The notes under the pieces: generated by a model
Database searches by the model: none
Seen by the model: only the letters and a program-made list of their open reading frames with translations
Told to the model about the DNA's origin: nothing
From: Candidatus Uhrbacteria bacterium
Lineage (GTDB): Bacteria; Patescibacteriota; Patescibacteriia; UBA9934
Assembly: GCA_018664485.1 (NCBI GenBank)
Contig: JABJOE010000005.1
Span: 15,581 to 79,580, forward strand
DNA: 64,000 nucleotides
Direction of reading: 5' to 3'
Program-made: the position numbers and the translations under genes
Shown here: positions 2,009 through 61,918 of the stretch, piece by piece
How positions within the stretch are numbered: the stretch's first letter is position 1
Layout: every line of letters begins with the position of its first letter

Positions 2009-2260
2009 ATGAACAACAAGCTATTTGTCGGCAGTTTGCCATGGGCAGTTGATGACCAGTCTTTGAACGACCTCTTCGCTACATACGGAGAAGTTCTCTC
2101 AGCTCGTGTTGTTACTGACCGTGACTCAGGACGTTCACGTGGATTCGGTTTTGTCGAGTTCGCTGATGACGCTTCTGCACAGGCTGCCATTGATGCGATG
2201 GACGGTGCTGACGTCGAAGGACGCAACATCACAGTTTCCGTTGCAAAGCCAAAGGAATAA
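2009..2260 (+). CDS. RRM-type RNA-binding protein (RNP-1 RGFGFVEF, RNP-2 LFVGSL)
   Basis: 83-aa ORF with canonical RNP-2 (LFVGSL) and RNP-1 (RGFGFVEF) motifs of bacterial glycine-poor/RRM RNA-binding proteins. Confidence 0.85.
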   Translation: MNNKLFVGSLPWAVDDQSLNDLFATYGEVLSARVVTDRDSGRSRGFGFVEFADDASAQAAIDAMDGADVEGRNITVSVAKPKE

Positions 2261-2900: not shown

Positions 2901-2976
2901 AGGGGAGTAGCTCAGTTGGTAGAGTAGAGGTCTCCAAAACCTTTGGTCGCAGGTTCAAGTCCTGTCTCCCCTGCCA
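2901..2976 (+). tRNA. tRNA-Trp (anticodon CCA)
   Basis: Acceptor AGGGGAG/CTCCCCT perfect, D arm GCTC-AGTTGGTA-GAGT, anticodon stem GAGGT/ACCTT loop CTCCAAA (U33, CCA, A37), T arm GCAGG-TTCAAGT-CCTGT, discriminator G, CCA encoded; 76 nt. Confidence 0.8.
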
Positions 2977-55336: not shown

Positions 55337-55642
55337 ATGCGCCTTACAGAAATCAAGGGACTTAACATGGACCTTACTGATGCGATAAAGGATCATGTAG
55401 AAAAACGTTTGGAAGGTTTAGAGCGGTTGTGCGAGGATCTTCAGCCATGCGATGTTGCCGCTGTAGTTGGAAAGACTACAAAGGGTCAGCAGAAGGGGTT
55501 GATCTTTAAAGCGGAATTTAATCTCAATATTCCGGGTACATTATTGCGCGTTGAGACGGTTAAGGAAGATTTGTATGAAGCGATTGACGTTGCTTTGAAA
55601 GATTTAAAACGACAGCTGGTTGCGTATAAAGAGAAGCGTTAA
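55337..55642 (+). CDS. hpf: ribosome hibernation promoting factor (HPF/RaiA family), copy 2
   Basis: MDLTDAIKDHVEKRLEGLERL... beta-alpha-beta-beta-beta-alpha HPF pattern; paralog of 5643..6017. Confidence 0.6.
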   Translation: MRLTEIKGLNMDLTDAIKDHVEKRLEGLERLCEDLQPCDVAAVVGKTTKGQQKGLIFKAEFNLNIPGTLLRVETVKEDLYEAIDVALKDLKRQLVAYKEKR

Positions 55643-55678
55643 TGTTAGTAGGTTTTGCTATAAGAATTTAAATGCAAT

Positions 55679-55706
55679 GAATCCCGAACTAGGTTCGGGA
55701 TTCTTT
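55679..55706. terminator. terminator: perfect 11-bp hairpin GAATCCCGAAC-TAG-GTTCGGGATTC + TTTC
   Basis: between hpf copy 2 (+) and convergent small gene 55728..55874 (-). Confidence 0.65.
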
Positions 55707-55727
55707 CGTGCAAGACGAGGAGTTGTC

Positions 55728-55874
55728 TTACTCGTAGGTGTTTGCGGCCATTGCCTCGGTGATCACTGTCGCGACCACGTCGGCGCTCCCCAGGTTGTGA
55801 GTGTTGGCCTTCGCCATCAGAATGGCGATGACTACAATCAGGGCCACGATGACGTGGTGTGGGCGGATTTCCAT
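55728..55874 (-). CDS. small (48 aa) single-TM protein
   Basis: minus-strand ATG 55874 preceded by GGAGGT RBS and (CAA)10 leader; MEIRPHHVIVALIVVIAILMAKANTHNLGSADVVATVITEAMAANTYE; not in ORF track (<60 aa). Confidence 0.45.
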   Translation of the reverse strand: MEIRPHHVIVALIVVIAILMAKANTHNLGSADVVATVITEAMAANTYE

Positions 55875-55888
55875 TTTCCGTTACCTCC

Positions 55889-55922
<34 letters not shown>

Positions 55923-55926
55923 GGGG

Positions 55927-56103
55927 TCAGTCGATGTAGATGATCTCGCACGTGTCAGGTGGGGTCACCTTGCAGGTGGCTTCCGACCCTTTCTCGGCGA
56001 TGATCACAAGATTGCTTACTTCTCGCTCAGCAACATATCCGTGTACGAACATGCGACCGAAGAATGCGGCGAGCACCATTGCTGCAACCGTAAGGTGGCG
56101 CAT
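55927..56103 (-). CDS. small (58 aa) signal/TM peptide (MRHLTVAAMVLAAFFG...)
   Basis: GGAG RBS 5 nt upstream of ATG 56103; R1 repeat 35 nt upstream. Confidence 0.45.
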   Translation of the reverse strand: MRHLTVAAMVLAAFFGRMFVHGYVAEREVSNLVIIAEKGSEATCKVTPPDTCEIIYID

Positions 56104-56137
56104 TAAGTCTCCGGGGAATCGATGCATGTTGCATCTA

Positions 56138-56185
56138 GGTTCACGAAATGCAGGAACGTGTCGTGCACTTTGTGAACCCTTGGAG
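56138..56185. repeat. R1 repeat copy a (48 nt, internal inverted repeat GGTTCAC...GTGAACC)
   Basis: identical to 56958-57005. Confidence 0.85.
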
Positions 56186-56214
56186 GCTATCGGCGGTATA
56201 TCTTCAAATCTTTT

Positions 56215-56256
56215 GCCTCAGAGATCACGACGTAGTCATGGTCTCAATTGGCGGCC
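56215..56256. repeat. R2 repeat copy a (42 nt hairpin element GCCTCAGAGATCACGAC-GTAG-TCATGGTCTC-AATTGGCGGCC)
   Basis: four copies with compensatory substitutions in the stem. Confidence 0.8.
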
Positions 56257-56298
56257 ACAGAAAGATTCCTGGGCCTAGGGGAGATGACGGTTGCCATC

Positions 56299-56505
56299 TC
56301 AGAAGATGAAGTAGTGCCGGTTGGTGATGTCTTCACCGTTTTCTGCGATGTCGGGGGTGGGCAGGGCCTCGATCGAGTCGAGTGCCTCGACCAGAGCAGG
56401 GCTCAAGTCGGGGGACATCACAGCCTTGAGGGCAGCGTTGTCGTCGGTGGTGGTTGAGGTTCCGGTGCTCAGAGCGAGCAGAACGGCAAGGATGGTGTTG
56501 GACAT
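56299..56505 (-). CDS. small (68 aa) secreted acidic peptide (MSNTILAVLLALSTG...)
   Basis: signal-peptide-like N-terminus; track ORF trimmed to internal Met. Confidence 0.4.
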   Translation of the reverse strand: MSNTILAVLLALSTGTSTTTDDNAALKAVMSPDLSPALVEALDSIEALPTPDIAENGEDITNRHYFIF

Positions 56506-56584
56506 ATTGTCCTCCGTTGTGGGGTGGGTGGGTGTCACCAAGCATGTAATGACACTTACTCAACTCACAACTTTTATTTGCATC

Positions 56585-56626
56585 GCCTTGGAGGTCACCA
56601 GCTAGTGATGATCTCAGTTGGCGGCC
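56585..56626. repeat. R2 repeat copy b (diverged)
   Basis: GCCTTGGAGGTCACCAG-CTAG-TGATGATCTC-AGTTGGCGGCC. Confidence 0.7.
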
Positions 56627-56681
56627 TAGAGAGATGATTCTAGGACCACGGTTGAAGAGTGAAGGAAGGTTGGTTGGTAGT

Positions 56682-56927
56682 TCAGGCAGGTGTTCCTTGG
56701 TACATCGTCCCGAAGGCCAGGAGGAGCAAGAACATCTTGGCCAGAACCATCATGCTGCCGCCCCAGATTGCGGTCGCTCCACGATCGTAGTGGGGCATAC
56801 GACGCATCCGAATCATCAGGATGGCGGCGATGGTCAGCGATGCGGCGAAGCCGACGCTGGAAGTAGTGATGCCTGCATCGGTGCAGAGCATGGCGAGAAA
56901 TTCAGCTTTGAGTTGGGTCGGGGTCAT
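56682..56927 (-). CDS. small (81 aa) two-TM membrane protein (MTPTQLKAEFLAML...)
   Basis: GGAG RBS 6 nt upstream of ATG 56927; R1 copy b 30 nt upstream. Confidence 0.45.
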   Translation of the reverse strand: MTPTQLKAEFLAMLCTDAGITTSSVGFAASLTIAAILMIRMRRMPHYDRGATAIWGGSMMVLAKMFLLLLAFGTMYQGTPA

Positions 56928-56957
56928 GGTGGCTCCAGTGTGATGCATATGCATCGA

Positions 56958-57005
56958 GGGTTCACGAAATGCAGGAACGTGTCGTGCACTTTGTGAACCC
57001 TTGGA
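56958..57005. repeat. R1 repeat copy b
   Basis: 48/48 identical to copy a. Confidence 0.85.
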
Positions 57006-57020
57006 GCTCGTATTACGTAT

Positions 57021-57064
57021 TGCCTCAGAGATCACCACAAGCATGTGATGGTCTCAATTGGCTG
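57021..57064. repeat. R2 repeat copy c
   Basis: GCCTCAGAGATCACCAC-AAGCA-TGTGATGGTCTC-AATTGGCTGG; G-C to C-G covariation at stem position 9. Confidence 0.75.
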
Positions 57065-57101
57065 GTAGTTGGACAAGAAATGTCCGCGTACCAAGTGCTG
57101 T

Positions 57102-57281
57102 TTAGCCTGTGATCATCATGAGGAAGAACAGACCGCCGAGCATCGTGCCCCCGATCAGGAAAAGTACCGTGATTAGTGCTTTCGCTAAATCTTCGTCCTT
57201 TCGTGTTTTTTCTTCTTGTGATCTGATTCTGATCTCGTTGGCTCGTTTCTGCTCATAACTTGGCTGGCGTCGTTTTCTCAT
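57102..57281 (-). CDS. small (59 aa) tail-anchored membrane protein (basic N-terminus, C-terminal TM)
   Basis: MRKRRQPSYEQKRANEIRIRSQEEKTRKDEDLAKALITVLFLIGGTMLGGLFFLMMITG; not in ORF track (<60 aa). Confidence 0.4.
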   Translation of the reverse strand: MRKRRQPSYEQKRANEIRIRSQEEKTRKDEDLAKALITVLFLIGGTMLGGLFFLMMITG

Positions 57282-57327
57282 TGCTTCTACCTATTCGGGT
57301 TACTGCCCGATATGTGGAGGCGTATTT

Positions 57328-57369
57328 GCCTCAGAGATCACGACATAGTCATGGCCTCAATTGGCAGCC
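57328..57369. repeat. R2 repeat copy d
   Basis: GCCTCAGAGATCACGAC-ATAG-TCATGGCCTC-AATTGGCAGCC. Confidence 0.75.
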
Positions 57370-57424
57370 GCGGAACAGTGAAGTTCCGCGGCAGTCAGCT
57401 ACGTAGTAACGCAGGTGATGGGCC

Positions 57425-57628
57425 TCAGAGGGAGGCGAGGACATCAGGATTGATGTCGTTGGTCCGGGGCGTGATGCCCATGACCGGGATGGTCGCGCCG
57501 CCGTTGGGCTGGAGCGAGTCCATGGTGTCGCTGAGCTTCACCATGGACTCGTGCATTTCGTAGCACGGAATGGCGAACCCGCCGATGGTGAGTGCGAAAG
57601 CGAGGCCGAGGTGAATGATTCGAGTCAT
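57425..57628 (-). CDS. small (67 aa) secreted/lipoprotein-like peptide (MTRIIHLGLAFALTIGGFAIPC...)
   Basis: GGAGA RBS 6 nt upstream of ATG 57628; track ORF trimmed. Confidence 0.45.
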   Translation of the reverse strand: MTRIIHLGLAFALTIGGFAIPCYEMHESMVKLSDTMDSLQPNGGATIPVMGITPRTNDINPDVLASL

Positions 57629-57677
57629 GATGGATCTCCGAGTTGTAGTGCACTGAGTTGTGCTTGATCCTGACCTA

Positions 57678-57706
57678 ATAGTAGCACGTTTTAGCACTTT
57701 TGTCAA
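57678..57706 (-). promoter_or_regulatory. promoter TTGACAAAAG-N13-TACTAT (minus strand) heading the small-peptide array
   Basis: complement of 57701-57706 = TTGACA; 17-nt spacer; TACTAT = complement of 57678-57683. Confidence 0.5.
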
Positions 57707-57968
57707 GTTACTCTGGACAGAAAAGAGAGAGAAAACCTTATAAAACAAGCATAAAACAGTCTTTTTGTTTTGTATCTTTGAACTAAAATTCAATAACTTT
57801 TTAGCCTAATAAAGACAAAGTTGTACGCCTTGTCATTTTCGACATTTTCAGGCACAATAGCGACGTTATACCCAACGGAATGGCCTTTAACATGTACTTT
57901 CTAAAAGTGCCTTAAGGTCTACGGGATAAAAACTCATATACAGATTTTGGATAACTCTATTTAAAGTT

Positions 57969-60777: not shown

Positions 60778-61119
60778 GTGAAAGATCTTGCGCCAGATAT
60801 TTACCGTCAAAGATTAGTAGTCGAAGGCTATCCGAAGAATCCGATTACTGCGGAGCAGATTAAGGACTATCTGTCGAAGCTTTCGGGTGAGCTTAAAATG
60901 GTGACACTTTTGGAGCCGATTGCTCATTTATCACCTAAGTTCGGATGGGCTGGTTGGATTCACTGGGAGACGTCTGGTGCACATTTTTATGCATGGGATA
61001 GGCCACGTGTATTTTTTAGTGTAGATATTTATACTTGCCTAAAGTTTTCAAACGAGGACGCGGTAAGATTTACAAAAGAATATTTTGATGCGACTGAAGT
61101 AGTTTGGAAAGAAGTGTAA
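60778..61119 (+). CDS. S-adenosylmethionine decarboxylase-like (SpeH/class 1b AdoMetDC family) protein, GTG start assumed
   Basis: SPKFGWAGWIHWETSGAHFYAWDRPRVFFSVDIYTC parallels [23 protein letters not shown]...VDVFTC of bacterial AdoMetDC; track ORF 60529..61119 overlaps secA so start moved to GTG 60778. Confidence 0.45.
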   Translation: MKDLAPDIYRQRLVVEGYPKNPITAEQIKDYLSKLSGELKMVTLLEPIAHLSPKFGWAGWIHWETSGAHFYAWDRPRVFFSVDIYTCLKFSNEDAVRFTKEYFDATEVVWKEV

Positions 61120-61172
61120 TTTTGTATAAATACAGAACTCCGGCCGTGGCAATGCCAAGACCGGAGTAAGAG

Positions 61173-61291
61173 AGGGGATGAAGGGTGTCGAACCCCCGAC
61201 CTACCGTTAGCGTTTGCGTGTTGGCGCAAACGAGGCCTACCAGGACCGTAGGTCCGGGCCACGGTCGCTCTCCCAACTGAGCTACATCCCC
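61173..61291 (-). tRNA. oversized (119 nt) tRNA-like gene: canonical acceptor (GGGGATG/CATCCCC), D arm and T arm but ~68-nt anticodon/variable region with extra 8-bp hairpin (possible intron-containing or atypical tRNA)
   Basis: minus strand GGGGATG-TA-GCTC-AGTTGGGA-GAGC-G-ACCGT...ACGGT-AGGTC-GGGGG-TTCGACA-CCCTT-CATCCCC-T; no U33-containing 7-nt anticodon loop can be placed without removing ~45 nt; no CCA encoded. Confidence 0.45.
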
Positions 61292-61324
61292 TAAGGTCGC
61301 TACAGTAAAGGAAACTACTGATAT

Positions 61325-61918
61325 ATGTCAATTGATGTGAAAATAATCGACTGGACAACTGTACTTGCTGACTGGAAAGATTCCGAAGAAGAAATTTGGC
61401 GATCTCATTACACTGAGCGTGGATATGACAGTTGGTGGCAATGGCGTAAGACTTATAGCGCCGAATTTGATTTACCGGCACGCAGATGGACGGAGGAGAT
61501 AGTTGAAGATCCTCATGACGTAATTCCTGCCATAAAAATCGGTGGGTATCGTGGTTGGAAGATATATCGACCGGCAGGACTTGAGATTGCAACGTTCGCT
61601 GACATTGCACGCCATATTGTGGCAGGTGAGTTGTCTATACTCGGTGAGCTACGTATTGATGTGCGTACAAATGAAAAGGTTAAAAACCGTGCAGGAAATT
61701 TGCATGATACAACGTTACTCGTATTGCGTTCCGGAGACTTCACAGTGCTACTAGACGGTACGCATCGTGCTGCGGCAATCGCCGTTGAAGCTATTGACGA
61801 TATAAAATCTTCTTTAAAAGTCACTTTACGAGTTTGCCATTTTGATGACAGCGAGAGGTCATTGCTTGAGAAGTTTGCAAAAGATCGAAGATACGTAGTT
61901 AAAAAGAAAAATGACTAA
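61325..61918 (+). CDS. hypothetical protein with possible ParB/sulfiredoxin-like DGTHR motif
   Basis: TVLLDGTHRAAAIAVEA resembles ParB N-terminal DGxHR; otherwise unassigned. Confidence 0.35.
   Translation: MSIDVKIIDWTTVLADWKDSEEEIWRSHYTERGYDSWWQWRKTYSAEFDLPARRWTEEIVEDPHDVIPAIKIGGYRGWKIYRPAGLEIATFADIARHIVAGELSILGELRIDVRTNEKVKNRAGNLHDTTLLVLRSGDFTVLLDGTHRAAAIAVEAIDDIKSSLKVTLRVCHFDDSERSLLEKFAKDRRYVVKKKND

Follow-up and report, generated by a model that had tools for sequence, protein, structure and literature searches.

A gene of tRNA descent, in which a predicted folded insert of 53 nt takes the place of the anticodon loop, was recognised on the minus strand at positions 61173-61291 of the 64,000-nt stretch of DNA that was analysed here and is referred to as the window. 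The gene is real, unusual and under-annotated, its derivation from a tRNA is firmly supported, and it probably cannot read codons. We tentatively favour a non-decoding tRNA-like RNA with a structured module at its anticodon end, and a disabled tRNA gene is nearly as likely. The host, a marine bacterium, belongs to the candidate phyla radiation; the source of the neighbouring protein is recorded at NCBI as Candidatus Uhrbacteria bacterium, and the identical gene also occurs on a 986-kb JGI contig. The parts of the gene and the features that bear on it are as follows.

41-116, 283-367 and 2901-2976, plus strand: ordinary tRNA genes Thr-GGU, Tyr-GUA and Trp-CCA, with the 3' CCA encoded in all
60778-61119, plus strand: 113-aa AdoMet_dc-like gene, which adjoins the RNA gene
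61125..61167, minus strand: terminator-like hairpin ACUCCGGUCUUGGCA-U-UGCCACGGCCGGAGU, then UUCUGUAUUU (inverted repeat I1, manual assignment)
61173..61291, minus strand: tRNA-like gene of 119 nt, from G1 to discriminator U73 (Rfam RF00005 and ARAGORN intron mode)
61173..61180, minus strand: 3' strand of the acceptor stem, CAUCCCC, and discriminator U; the next bases are CUC, not CCA (sequence reading)
61181..61197, minus strand: T arm GGGGG-UUCGACA-CCCUU with two G-U pairs (covariance-model match)
61198..61202, minus strand: variable loop AGGUC, whose C48 is able to pair with G15 (covariance-model match)
61203..61207, minus strand: 3' strand of the anticodon stem (P1), ACGGU (covariance-model match)
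61208..61260, minus strand: insert of 53 nt that replaces the 7-nt anticodon loop (covariance-model alignment)
61211..61232, minus strand: P4 hairpin CGUUUGCG-CCAACA-CGCAAACG with 8 Watson-Crick pairs (fold prediction)
61234..61260, minus strand: P2-P3 arm GGCC / C / GGACC-UAC-GGUCC / UGGUA / GGCC (MFE and centroid structure of stem plus insert)
61261..61265, minus strand: 5' strand of the anticodon stem (P1), ACCGU (covariance-model match and fold)
61267..61282, minus strand: D arm GCUC-AGUUGGGA-GAGC, in which A14, G15, G18, G19 and A21 are present (covariance-model match)
61285..61291, minus strand: 5' strand of the acceptor stem, GGGGAUG, pairing 7/7 with 61174-61180 (covariance-model match)
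61302..61307, minus strand: putative -10-like hexamer TACTGT, 3/6 with A2 and T6 present (manual assignment)
61326..61331, minus strand: -35-like hexamer TTGACA, 6/6, overlapping the start codon of the divergent 197-aa gene (manual reading)
61325-61918, plus strand: 197-aa orphan gene, which has no Pfam or PDB sequence match

Against the Rfam tRNA model (RF00005) the gene scores 45.7 bits over model positions 1-71, the gathering score being 29, and this match is more than chance (E 1.6e-8 for a local search space of 701 nt with relaxed filters). Together with the intron-mode call of ARAGORN, it accounts for the firm support of the tRNA-derived nature of the gene. All 7 pairs of the acceptor stem GGGGAUG/CAUCCCC are of the Watson-Crick type, and U8 and G26 are present when the sequence is read in this frame. 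The perfect 7-bp acceptor stem, the D arm and the T arm that were pointed out in the initial annotation, which a model had made from the letters, were recovered from the minus strand as well as through the Rfam model, and the anticodon stem ACCGT/ACGGT that it proposed is present as P1, where the covariance model places it. The spacing between the D stem and the T stem, given there as ~68 nt instead of ~22, measures 69 nt versus 23 nt in a class I tRNA. The whole-window Rfam scan at default filters missed the gene and ARAGORN in standard mode made no call at 61173-61291; moreover, neither that mode nor the Rfam tRNA model placed a standard-length tRNA here in another register.

The departures from an ordinary tRNA concern decoding and aminoacylation. 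The gene has no anticodon loop of 7 nt in which U33 and a purine 37 are present, the two strands of the anticodon stem being 53 nt apart, and since GG directly follows the 5' strand of that stem in the sequence, no single excision restores U33. The intron mode of ARAGORN proposes tRNA-Gly(CCC) and places an intron of 46 nt at 37/38 or 38/39, and the spliced loops that it offers, GGCCCGG or GGCCCGA, are both without U33. It had been claimed at the outset that no U33 loop can be placed without an excision of ~45 nt; the absence of a canonical loop holds, whereas the rescue by excision does not, as the loop is still without U33 after some 46 nt have been taken out. CCA is encoded by all three ordinary tRNA genes of the window and not by the tRNA-like gene, which ends in U-CUC. 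In E. coli, the identity set of tRNA-Gly consists of U73, G1:C72, C2:G71, G3:C70 and C35/C36 in a normal loop; here U73, G1:C72 and G3:C70 are present, position 2 is occupied by G2:C71, and the CCC triplet is predicted to be partly paired. The discriminator U73 is also found in the tRNA-Thr of the window, and the closest bodies in the fetched set, which is biased by the search pattern, are those of tRNA-Ala. Alanine identity itself was rejected, the gene having G3:C70 and U73 rather than G3:U70 and A73. The ARAGORN isotype Gly(CCC) was likewise discarded as evidence, being arbitrary, since SeC and Ser were both assigned to members of a single family. Because the isotype varies in this way within a family, tRNA-Thr also bears U73 and the body is tRNA-Ala-like, the glycine label is weak, and the gene is without a clear aminoacylation identity.

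Signals of its own appear to flank the gene. Upstream, the two hexamers of the putative promoter are separated by an 18-nt spacer, and the -10-like hexamer ends 10 nt before G1; downstream, a 53-nt trailer that includes the terminator-like hairpin folds at -22.5 kcal/mol. A scan for consensus promoters and terminators listed neither signal, the promoter being left out because its -10 hexamer matches at only 3/6.

In the reading of a non-decoding RNA, transcription would run from the gene's own promoter to its own terminator, and the tRNA body would provide a stable fold and lead the transcript to 5' processing by RNase P and to 3' trimming. The elements that produce the tRNA L-shape are all kept, namely the 7-bp acceptor stem, the D arm with G18/G19, the UUCGA T loop, the G15:C48 pair and the 5-bp anticodon stem. 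The enlarged anticodon end would be unable to enter the ribosomal decoding site, and the variable module, in which the P2-P3 arm may be stacked on the anticodon stem with P4 standing as a separate 8-bp hairpin, would be the working end, if the RNA acts at all. This reading is preferred because the loop, U33, an encoded CCA and a clear charging identity are absent, yet the tRNA fold is intact and accompanied by putative signals of its own in a compact genome; because no known mechanism of removal fits the insert; and because other module-bearing tRNA-shaped genes, with modules of 45-60 nt and no canonical loop, give precedent for it. Among the candidates that the initial annotation had put forward, the non-canonical tRNA fits best, in the form of a probably non-decoding tRNA-like RNA.

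P1 and the insert are predicted to fold together into a three-way junction of -26.7 kcal/mol with a z-score of -2.29, and 5 of 200 shuffled sequences fold as well. This fold, better than that of shuffled sequence, and the G+C-rich composition of the insert in a region of the genome that lies mostly at 41-50% G+C speak for the non-decoding RNA. The 5' GGCC of P2 corresponds to positions 32-35 and takes in two C's of the nominal CCC anticodon. When the cloverleaf frame is enforced, the pair probabilities are 0.84 for P4, 0.70 for P3 and 0.25-0.36 for P2, and three conformers lie within 0.4 kcal/mol of one another, one of them including the 7-bp hairpin ACCGUGG/CUACGGU, so that the predicted structure of the insert is not unique and P4 and P3 are its only robust elements in these models. 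The mutually exclusive hairpins noticed earlier are thereby borne out as real alternatives, and the 8-bp hairpin around CCAACA was found as described, in one copy in the window. Covariation offers no support for the P2-P3 arm.

The same insert carries much of the case for a disabled tRNA gene, a possible though doubtful account that is nearly as likely as the non-decoding RNA. It would suppose that a dispensable tRNA gene underwent a recent insertion or palindromic duplication in the anticodon loop, together with a few point changes, and that the gene so left is perhaps transcribed and processed but has no function, its survival being due only to the recency of the event. The stems of the insert are all perfect Watson-Crick palindromes, which is what a recent event at the DNA level would leave, selection not being needed. 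A segment of the insert is complementary at 12 of 14 positions to the gene's own 3' anticodon-stem/variable-loop/T-stem segment (inverted repeat I2), as would fit a self-templated inverted duplication. The missing CCA and the lack of an alanine or any other clear aminoacylation identity also speak for a disabled gene, and so does codon usage, in that GGG makes up a minority of the glycine codons in the ORFs counted (84 of 688); a tRNA-Gly with the anticodon UCC could read GGG codons. On the other hand, all stem pairs and the conserved tertiary positions are intact while the functional features differ, a pattern that neutral decay would not yield. The putative promoter and terminator are kept, and the gene fills nearly the whole intergenic gap in a genome of ~1 Mb. 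Nor is the insert a repeated mobile element: a second copy was found neither in the 64-kb window (hairpin with up to 3 mismatches; short-word BLAST) nor among all fetched loci, apart from identical copies of the whole gene, and insertion of a REP- or MITE-like element was rejected on the ground that the window holds no further copy.

Comparative searches bear on both of these readings, and they lend no support to the non-decoding RNA, against which the non-unique fold and the palindromic stems of the insert also speak. A copy of the gene with 100% identity is present on ten other contigs, nine of which were reached via the neighbouring protein and one by the metagenome scan; where these contigs overlap the window, along 1.4-4.1 kb, they match it at 99.9-100% identity. 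The available copies are clonal and hold no information on function versus accident; since every copy is identical, a non-decoding RNA and a disabled gene are not separable by them. Apart from the species itself, the flanking proteins have their nearest homologues at 61% (197-aa protein) and 73% (AdoMet_dc-like protein) identity, and no AdoMet_dc-like homologue above 73% identity was found outside the same species. In the loci around the 197-aa homologues (50-61% identity) no tRNA or tRNA-like gene stands at the syntenic site, where the gap holds a 46-aa ORF, and no tRNA adjoins the AdoMet_dc-like gene in the contexts of two of its homologues. Relatives differ in gene content in the stretch from secA to the 197-aa gene. 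That the gene is a singleton, absent from this variable syntenic region in relatives, is a further point in favour of a disabled gene. The variability of the secA-to-197-aa stretch also gives indirect support to the insertion hotspot suggested in the initial annotation; the insert is not a repeated element.

Sequence collections were scanned with a pattern made from the D arm and the T arm. Among species-representative genomes, one per species, there were 43 matches (the tRNA-like gene itself not being among them), viral contigs gave 62, and metagenomes gave at least 119 stretches, the identical copy L163 being the only one of this gene among the matches listed. A related insert occurred in none of the species-representative, viral and listed metagenome matches, and no motif is shared with the other module families described below. 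Many of the 62 viral-contig matches come from one sample (3300045988). In a BLAST search against phages, only the 5' 26-28 nt found matches, which were to tRNA-Ala-like genes.

The tRNA-like gene sits between the 113-aa AdoMet_dc-like gene, which lies downstream of secA, and the divergent 197-aa orphan gene, beyond which follow a GST gene and a rhodanese-type gene of the UPF0176 family. The GST neighbour had been correctly identified from the letters, as Pfam agrees, while the ParB motif assigned to the other neighbour was not upheld: the 197-aa protein has no sequence match in Pfam or PDB, its AlphaFold model (pLDDT 90) gives sulfiredoxin, ParB and Noc as the best structural matches, all with E>0.1, and this likeness is weak and not significant. 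Its family comprises six protein clusters with an invariant DG-x-HR motif, and the five besides that of its own species are 50-61% identical. Functional coupling of the RNA to the 197-aa gene was rejected, for relatives keep that gene without the RNA. The 113-aa AdoMet_dc-like protein shares ~70% identity with homologues that are assigned by name to Saccharibacteria and Actinomycetota (including Nanopelagicales), and relatives with a 197-aa homologue have no AdoMet_dc-like gene at the corresponding position; the gene may have been acquired horizontally into the variable region downstream of secA. No partner protein for the insert module is evident nearby. Elsewhere in the window, 2.3 kb at 55600-57950 have 52-57% G+C compared with mostly 41-50% in the flanking genes, and hold only short overlapping ORFs on both strands, a (GTT)11 run at 55890-55923 and dispersed repeats, of which a 51-nt unit occurs three times (56212, 56582 and 57325) and a 48-nt hairpin unit twice with 100% identity (56138 and 56959); no Rfam family matches this stretch at E<=1.

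That the gene is an intron-containing tRNA, read by ARAGORN as Gly(CCC) with a 46-nt intron, is an unlikely explanation, in which splicing would follow a route that is neither that of group I nor that of bulge-helix-bulge introns and would leave the loop GGCCCGG or GGCCCGA. Besides the ARAGORN call itself, it draws on the predicted pairing of positions 32-35 with the insert in P2, which resembles the anticodon-intron helix of other pre-tRNAs, and on U73 and G1-G3:C70-C72, which are compatible with glycine identity. A further point in its favour comes from the tRNA-Ala genes of the fetched loci L125 and L144, whose hairpin inserts of 27-28 nt leave a CUUGCAG loop when removed; by analogy, short introns other than group I may exist outside archaea. 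Against it, the spliced loop would be without the near-universal U33, the isotype call is arbitrary, tRNA-Thr also has U73, and the body is tRNA-Ala-like, as judged from a biased comparison set. A scan that was exhaustive over all splice-site pairs found no bulge-helix-bulge intron (two 3-nt bulges and a 4-bp helix) with a 5' site at 32-38 and a 3' site at 80-86. A group I intron was excluded as well, the insert having 46-53 nt compared with a core of ~200 nt or more, and Intron_gpI giving no match at E<=10. The small self-cleaving ribozymes (hammerhead, twister, pistol, hatchet and HDV-like) likewise have no Rfam match at E<=10; the other Rfam matches at that threshold are the snoRNAs sn3071 and sn2317 and the bacterial sRNA IsrM, with E 0.74-8 and far below their gathering thresholds. 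We know of no bacterial enzyme that would excise such an insert, and the 25 window ORFs scanned against Pfam include no candidate splicing enzyme, be it the splicing endonuclease EndA or the RtcB ligase, and no Ro60/TROVE protein. A literature search found no report of short tRNA introns in bacteria of the candidate phyla radiation. The intron candidate of the initial annotation is therefore weakened by the absence of a bulge-helix-bulge, group I or ribozyme match, of a canonical spliced loop and of EndA or RtcB in the 25 ORFs, and retains the intron-mode call on its side.

It is somewhat more improbable still that a splicing route undescribed in bacteria, neither group I nor bulge-helix-bulge, takes out the 46-nt insert and leaves a working tRNA, or else that the RNA is aminoacylated at its intact acceptor end and used outside the ribosome, its bulky anticodon end barring it from translation.

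Very improbable, finally, is a tRNA in which ACCGUGG/CUACGGU forms an anticodon stem of 7 bp, CCCGGAC is the 7-nt loop (anticodon CGG) and P4 lies in a variable region of 47 nt, for although this conformer is isoenergetic with the other two (-50.8 vs -50.7 and -51.1 kcal/mol) and the locus L101 shows that a canonical anticodon arm and a ~52-nt variable region occur together elsewhere, the covariance model prefers an insertion in the loop, the ensemble probability of the hairpin is 0.08-0.13, the 7-bp stem, C33 and 47-nt variable region are all non-canonical, and proline identity elements are absent.

The pattern scans retrieved further tRNA-shaped genes, and those with modules of 45-60 nt and no canonical loop give the precedent for the preferred reading, a non-decoding RNA with a structured module. 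Module-bearing genes of this shape are common in phage-like tRNA arrays and in some bacteria. Their positions in the fetched loci (L numbers) are listed here by type.

L109:2694-2817, L133:3205-3328, L134:293-416 and L017:7744-7867: tRNA-Ala-like genes embedded in 23S rRNA genes
L060:1276-1397, L060:1624-1749, L131:4632-4749, L100:5382-5482 and L085:2231-2351: genes with a UCAUG...GUGA module, with further contigs L067, L071, L092, L098, L112, L130, L135, L140 and others
L077:140-252, L114:2336-2448, L026:1953-2061, L039:71-192 and L050:680-785: genes with the CCGAAGGU motif
L125:3107-3206, L144 ~2146-2229 (reverse-complement strand), L122:376-488 and L175:8123-8228: hairpin-interrupted tRNA-Ala(UGC) genes

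In Parcubacteria, a tRNA-Ala-like gene with G3:U70, A73 and an encoded CCA lies inside a 23S rRNA gene, and its anticodon loop is interrupted by a hairpin insert of 59 nt. Within the LSU gene it is found at ~1.3 kb, in an intervening sequence with flanks that are able to pair, and the differences among its variants keep the hairpin paired. A second type, represented by 17 distinct tRNA-shaped genes among the matches listed, has, between the two strands of the anticodon stem, a hairpin (in many of them with UCAUG...GUGA) followed by a conserved (A)ACAGCAA or ACUGCAA motif. The members examined occur in tRNA arrays on metagenome or viral contigs, tRNA is the sole Rfam family matched by the five members scanned at E<=0.1, and these genes may constitute an undescribed RNA family. 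In a third type, of ordinary topology, the anticodon-end module contains CCGAAGGU...GGUUAUC-like motifs, which we take to resemble vertebrate Y RNA. YrlA gave weak matches (36-37.5 bits, less than its gathering score) in L077, where the match overlaps the gene, and in L026, where it is ~700 nt distant from the gene. Both L077 and L114 are large tRNA arrays, and the genes of this third type may be non-permuted relatives of YrlA. The fourth type consists of tRNA-Ala(UGC) genes with G3:U70 that are interrupted by hairpins of 27-40 nt including an inverted copy of the anticodon loop. The hairpins of L125 and L144 differ by compensatory changes, and their removal restores a canonical loop in both; the contexts of these two are phage-like (HNH, PTH2), and L175 adjoins an IS110 transposase.

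Two additional tRNA-shaped genes came to light in the same scans. One, from the gut, reads ACCCAAG...GAGACCAAAUAGUCCGUCGCAUGC, followed by an A-run of 6-10 and then UCCAGGGUCUUCAAAAGCUGGUUGAAAGAC, with CCA encoded; it is very common, occurring at L022:4043-4153 (Segatella copri) and on ~60 human-gut metagenome or viral contigs among the matches listed (L061, L068 and L078, for example), and the length of its A-run differs between contigs. The other, L101:1741-1861, combines an alanine-type acceptor (G3:U70) with the anticodon UUU (lysine) and the variable region mentioned above, and scores 57.4 bits on the tRNA model.

As the default tRNA and Rfam scans missed the gene of the window while the pattern scan yielded dozens in bacteria and phages, module-bearing tRNA-shaped genes are under-annotated in a systematic manner. 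If the RNA of the window is produced and persists, a non-coding RNA of tRNA shape and ordinary topology, with a structured module in the place of the anticodon, would exist in a bacterium of minimal genome, and the few natural tRNA mimics that include tmRNA and the YrlA-type Y RNAs would gain a further case. If it is spliced, a bacterial tRNA-intron pathway that nobody has described would be implied. Undescribed splicing or use outside the ribosome, if true, would be the first such system in bacteria of the candidate phyla radiation, and the hairpin-interrupted tRNA-Ala genes would be further examples. A merely broken gene would be an ordinary curiosity.

Among the known systems, canonical bacterial class I tRNA (RF00005) shares with the gene the acceptor, D and T arms, the 5-bp anticodon stem, the 5-nt variable loop and the conserved tertiary nucleotides, but has a 7-nt loop with U33, where the gene has 53 nt, no U33 and no encoded CCA. 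Group I introns interrupt the anticodon loops of cyanobacterial tRNA-Leu and Azoarcus tRNA-Ile and comprise 200 nt or more with a P1-P9 core; the likeness is that of a bacterial tRNA gene interrupted in its anticodon loop, whereas the insert here has only 46-53 nt and lacks a group I match. The bulge-helix-bulge introns of archaea and eukaryotes are likewise situated in the anticodon loop, with the nominal anticodon paired to the insert, yet the present gene differs in its bacterial host, in a spliced loop that would be non-canonical, and in the absence of a bulge-helix-bulge at positions that would restore a tRNA. In the tRNA genes of Lak megaphages, short 'enigmatic' introns came to notice because these genes exceeded the length that bacterial tRNA predictors accept (Devoto et al. 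2019, PMC6784885), and the gene of the window resembles them as a tRNA gene with a short insert outside archaea and eukaryotes. Those genes are phage-borne and their tRNA type and anticodon can be assigned, in contrast with the chromosomal gene described here, which has no canonical loop. With the other module-bearing tRNA-shaped genes, most of which belong to phage-like tRNA arrays or are embedded in 23S rRNA genes, the gene has in common the D and T arms and a structured module of 45-60 nt, while sequence and motifs are unrelated.

YrlA (Rfam RF02553) mimics tRNA and is recognised by tRNA-processing enzymes; it is permuted, with the T arm first, a closed acceptor-like loop and then the D arm, and both ends of the RNA lie in the Ro60-binding stem (Chen et al. 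2014, PMC4201824). Identity with YrlA or another Y RNA was rejected for the gene of the window, since there is no match at E<=10, the topology is not permuted and no TROVE protein occurs among the 25 window ORFs scanned. Unlike YrlA, the gene is of ordinary topology and has neither a GNCGAA motif nor a Ro60/TROVE gene among those ORFs; like YrlA, a non-decoding RNA, it keeps D, T and acceptor elements and carries a different module at the anticodon end, and it would be non-decoding as well. By this comparison, the tRNA-like RNA would work most like the YrlA-type Y RNAs, without being a member of their family.
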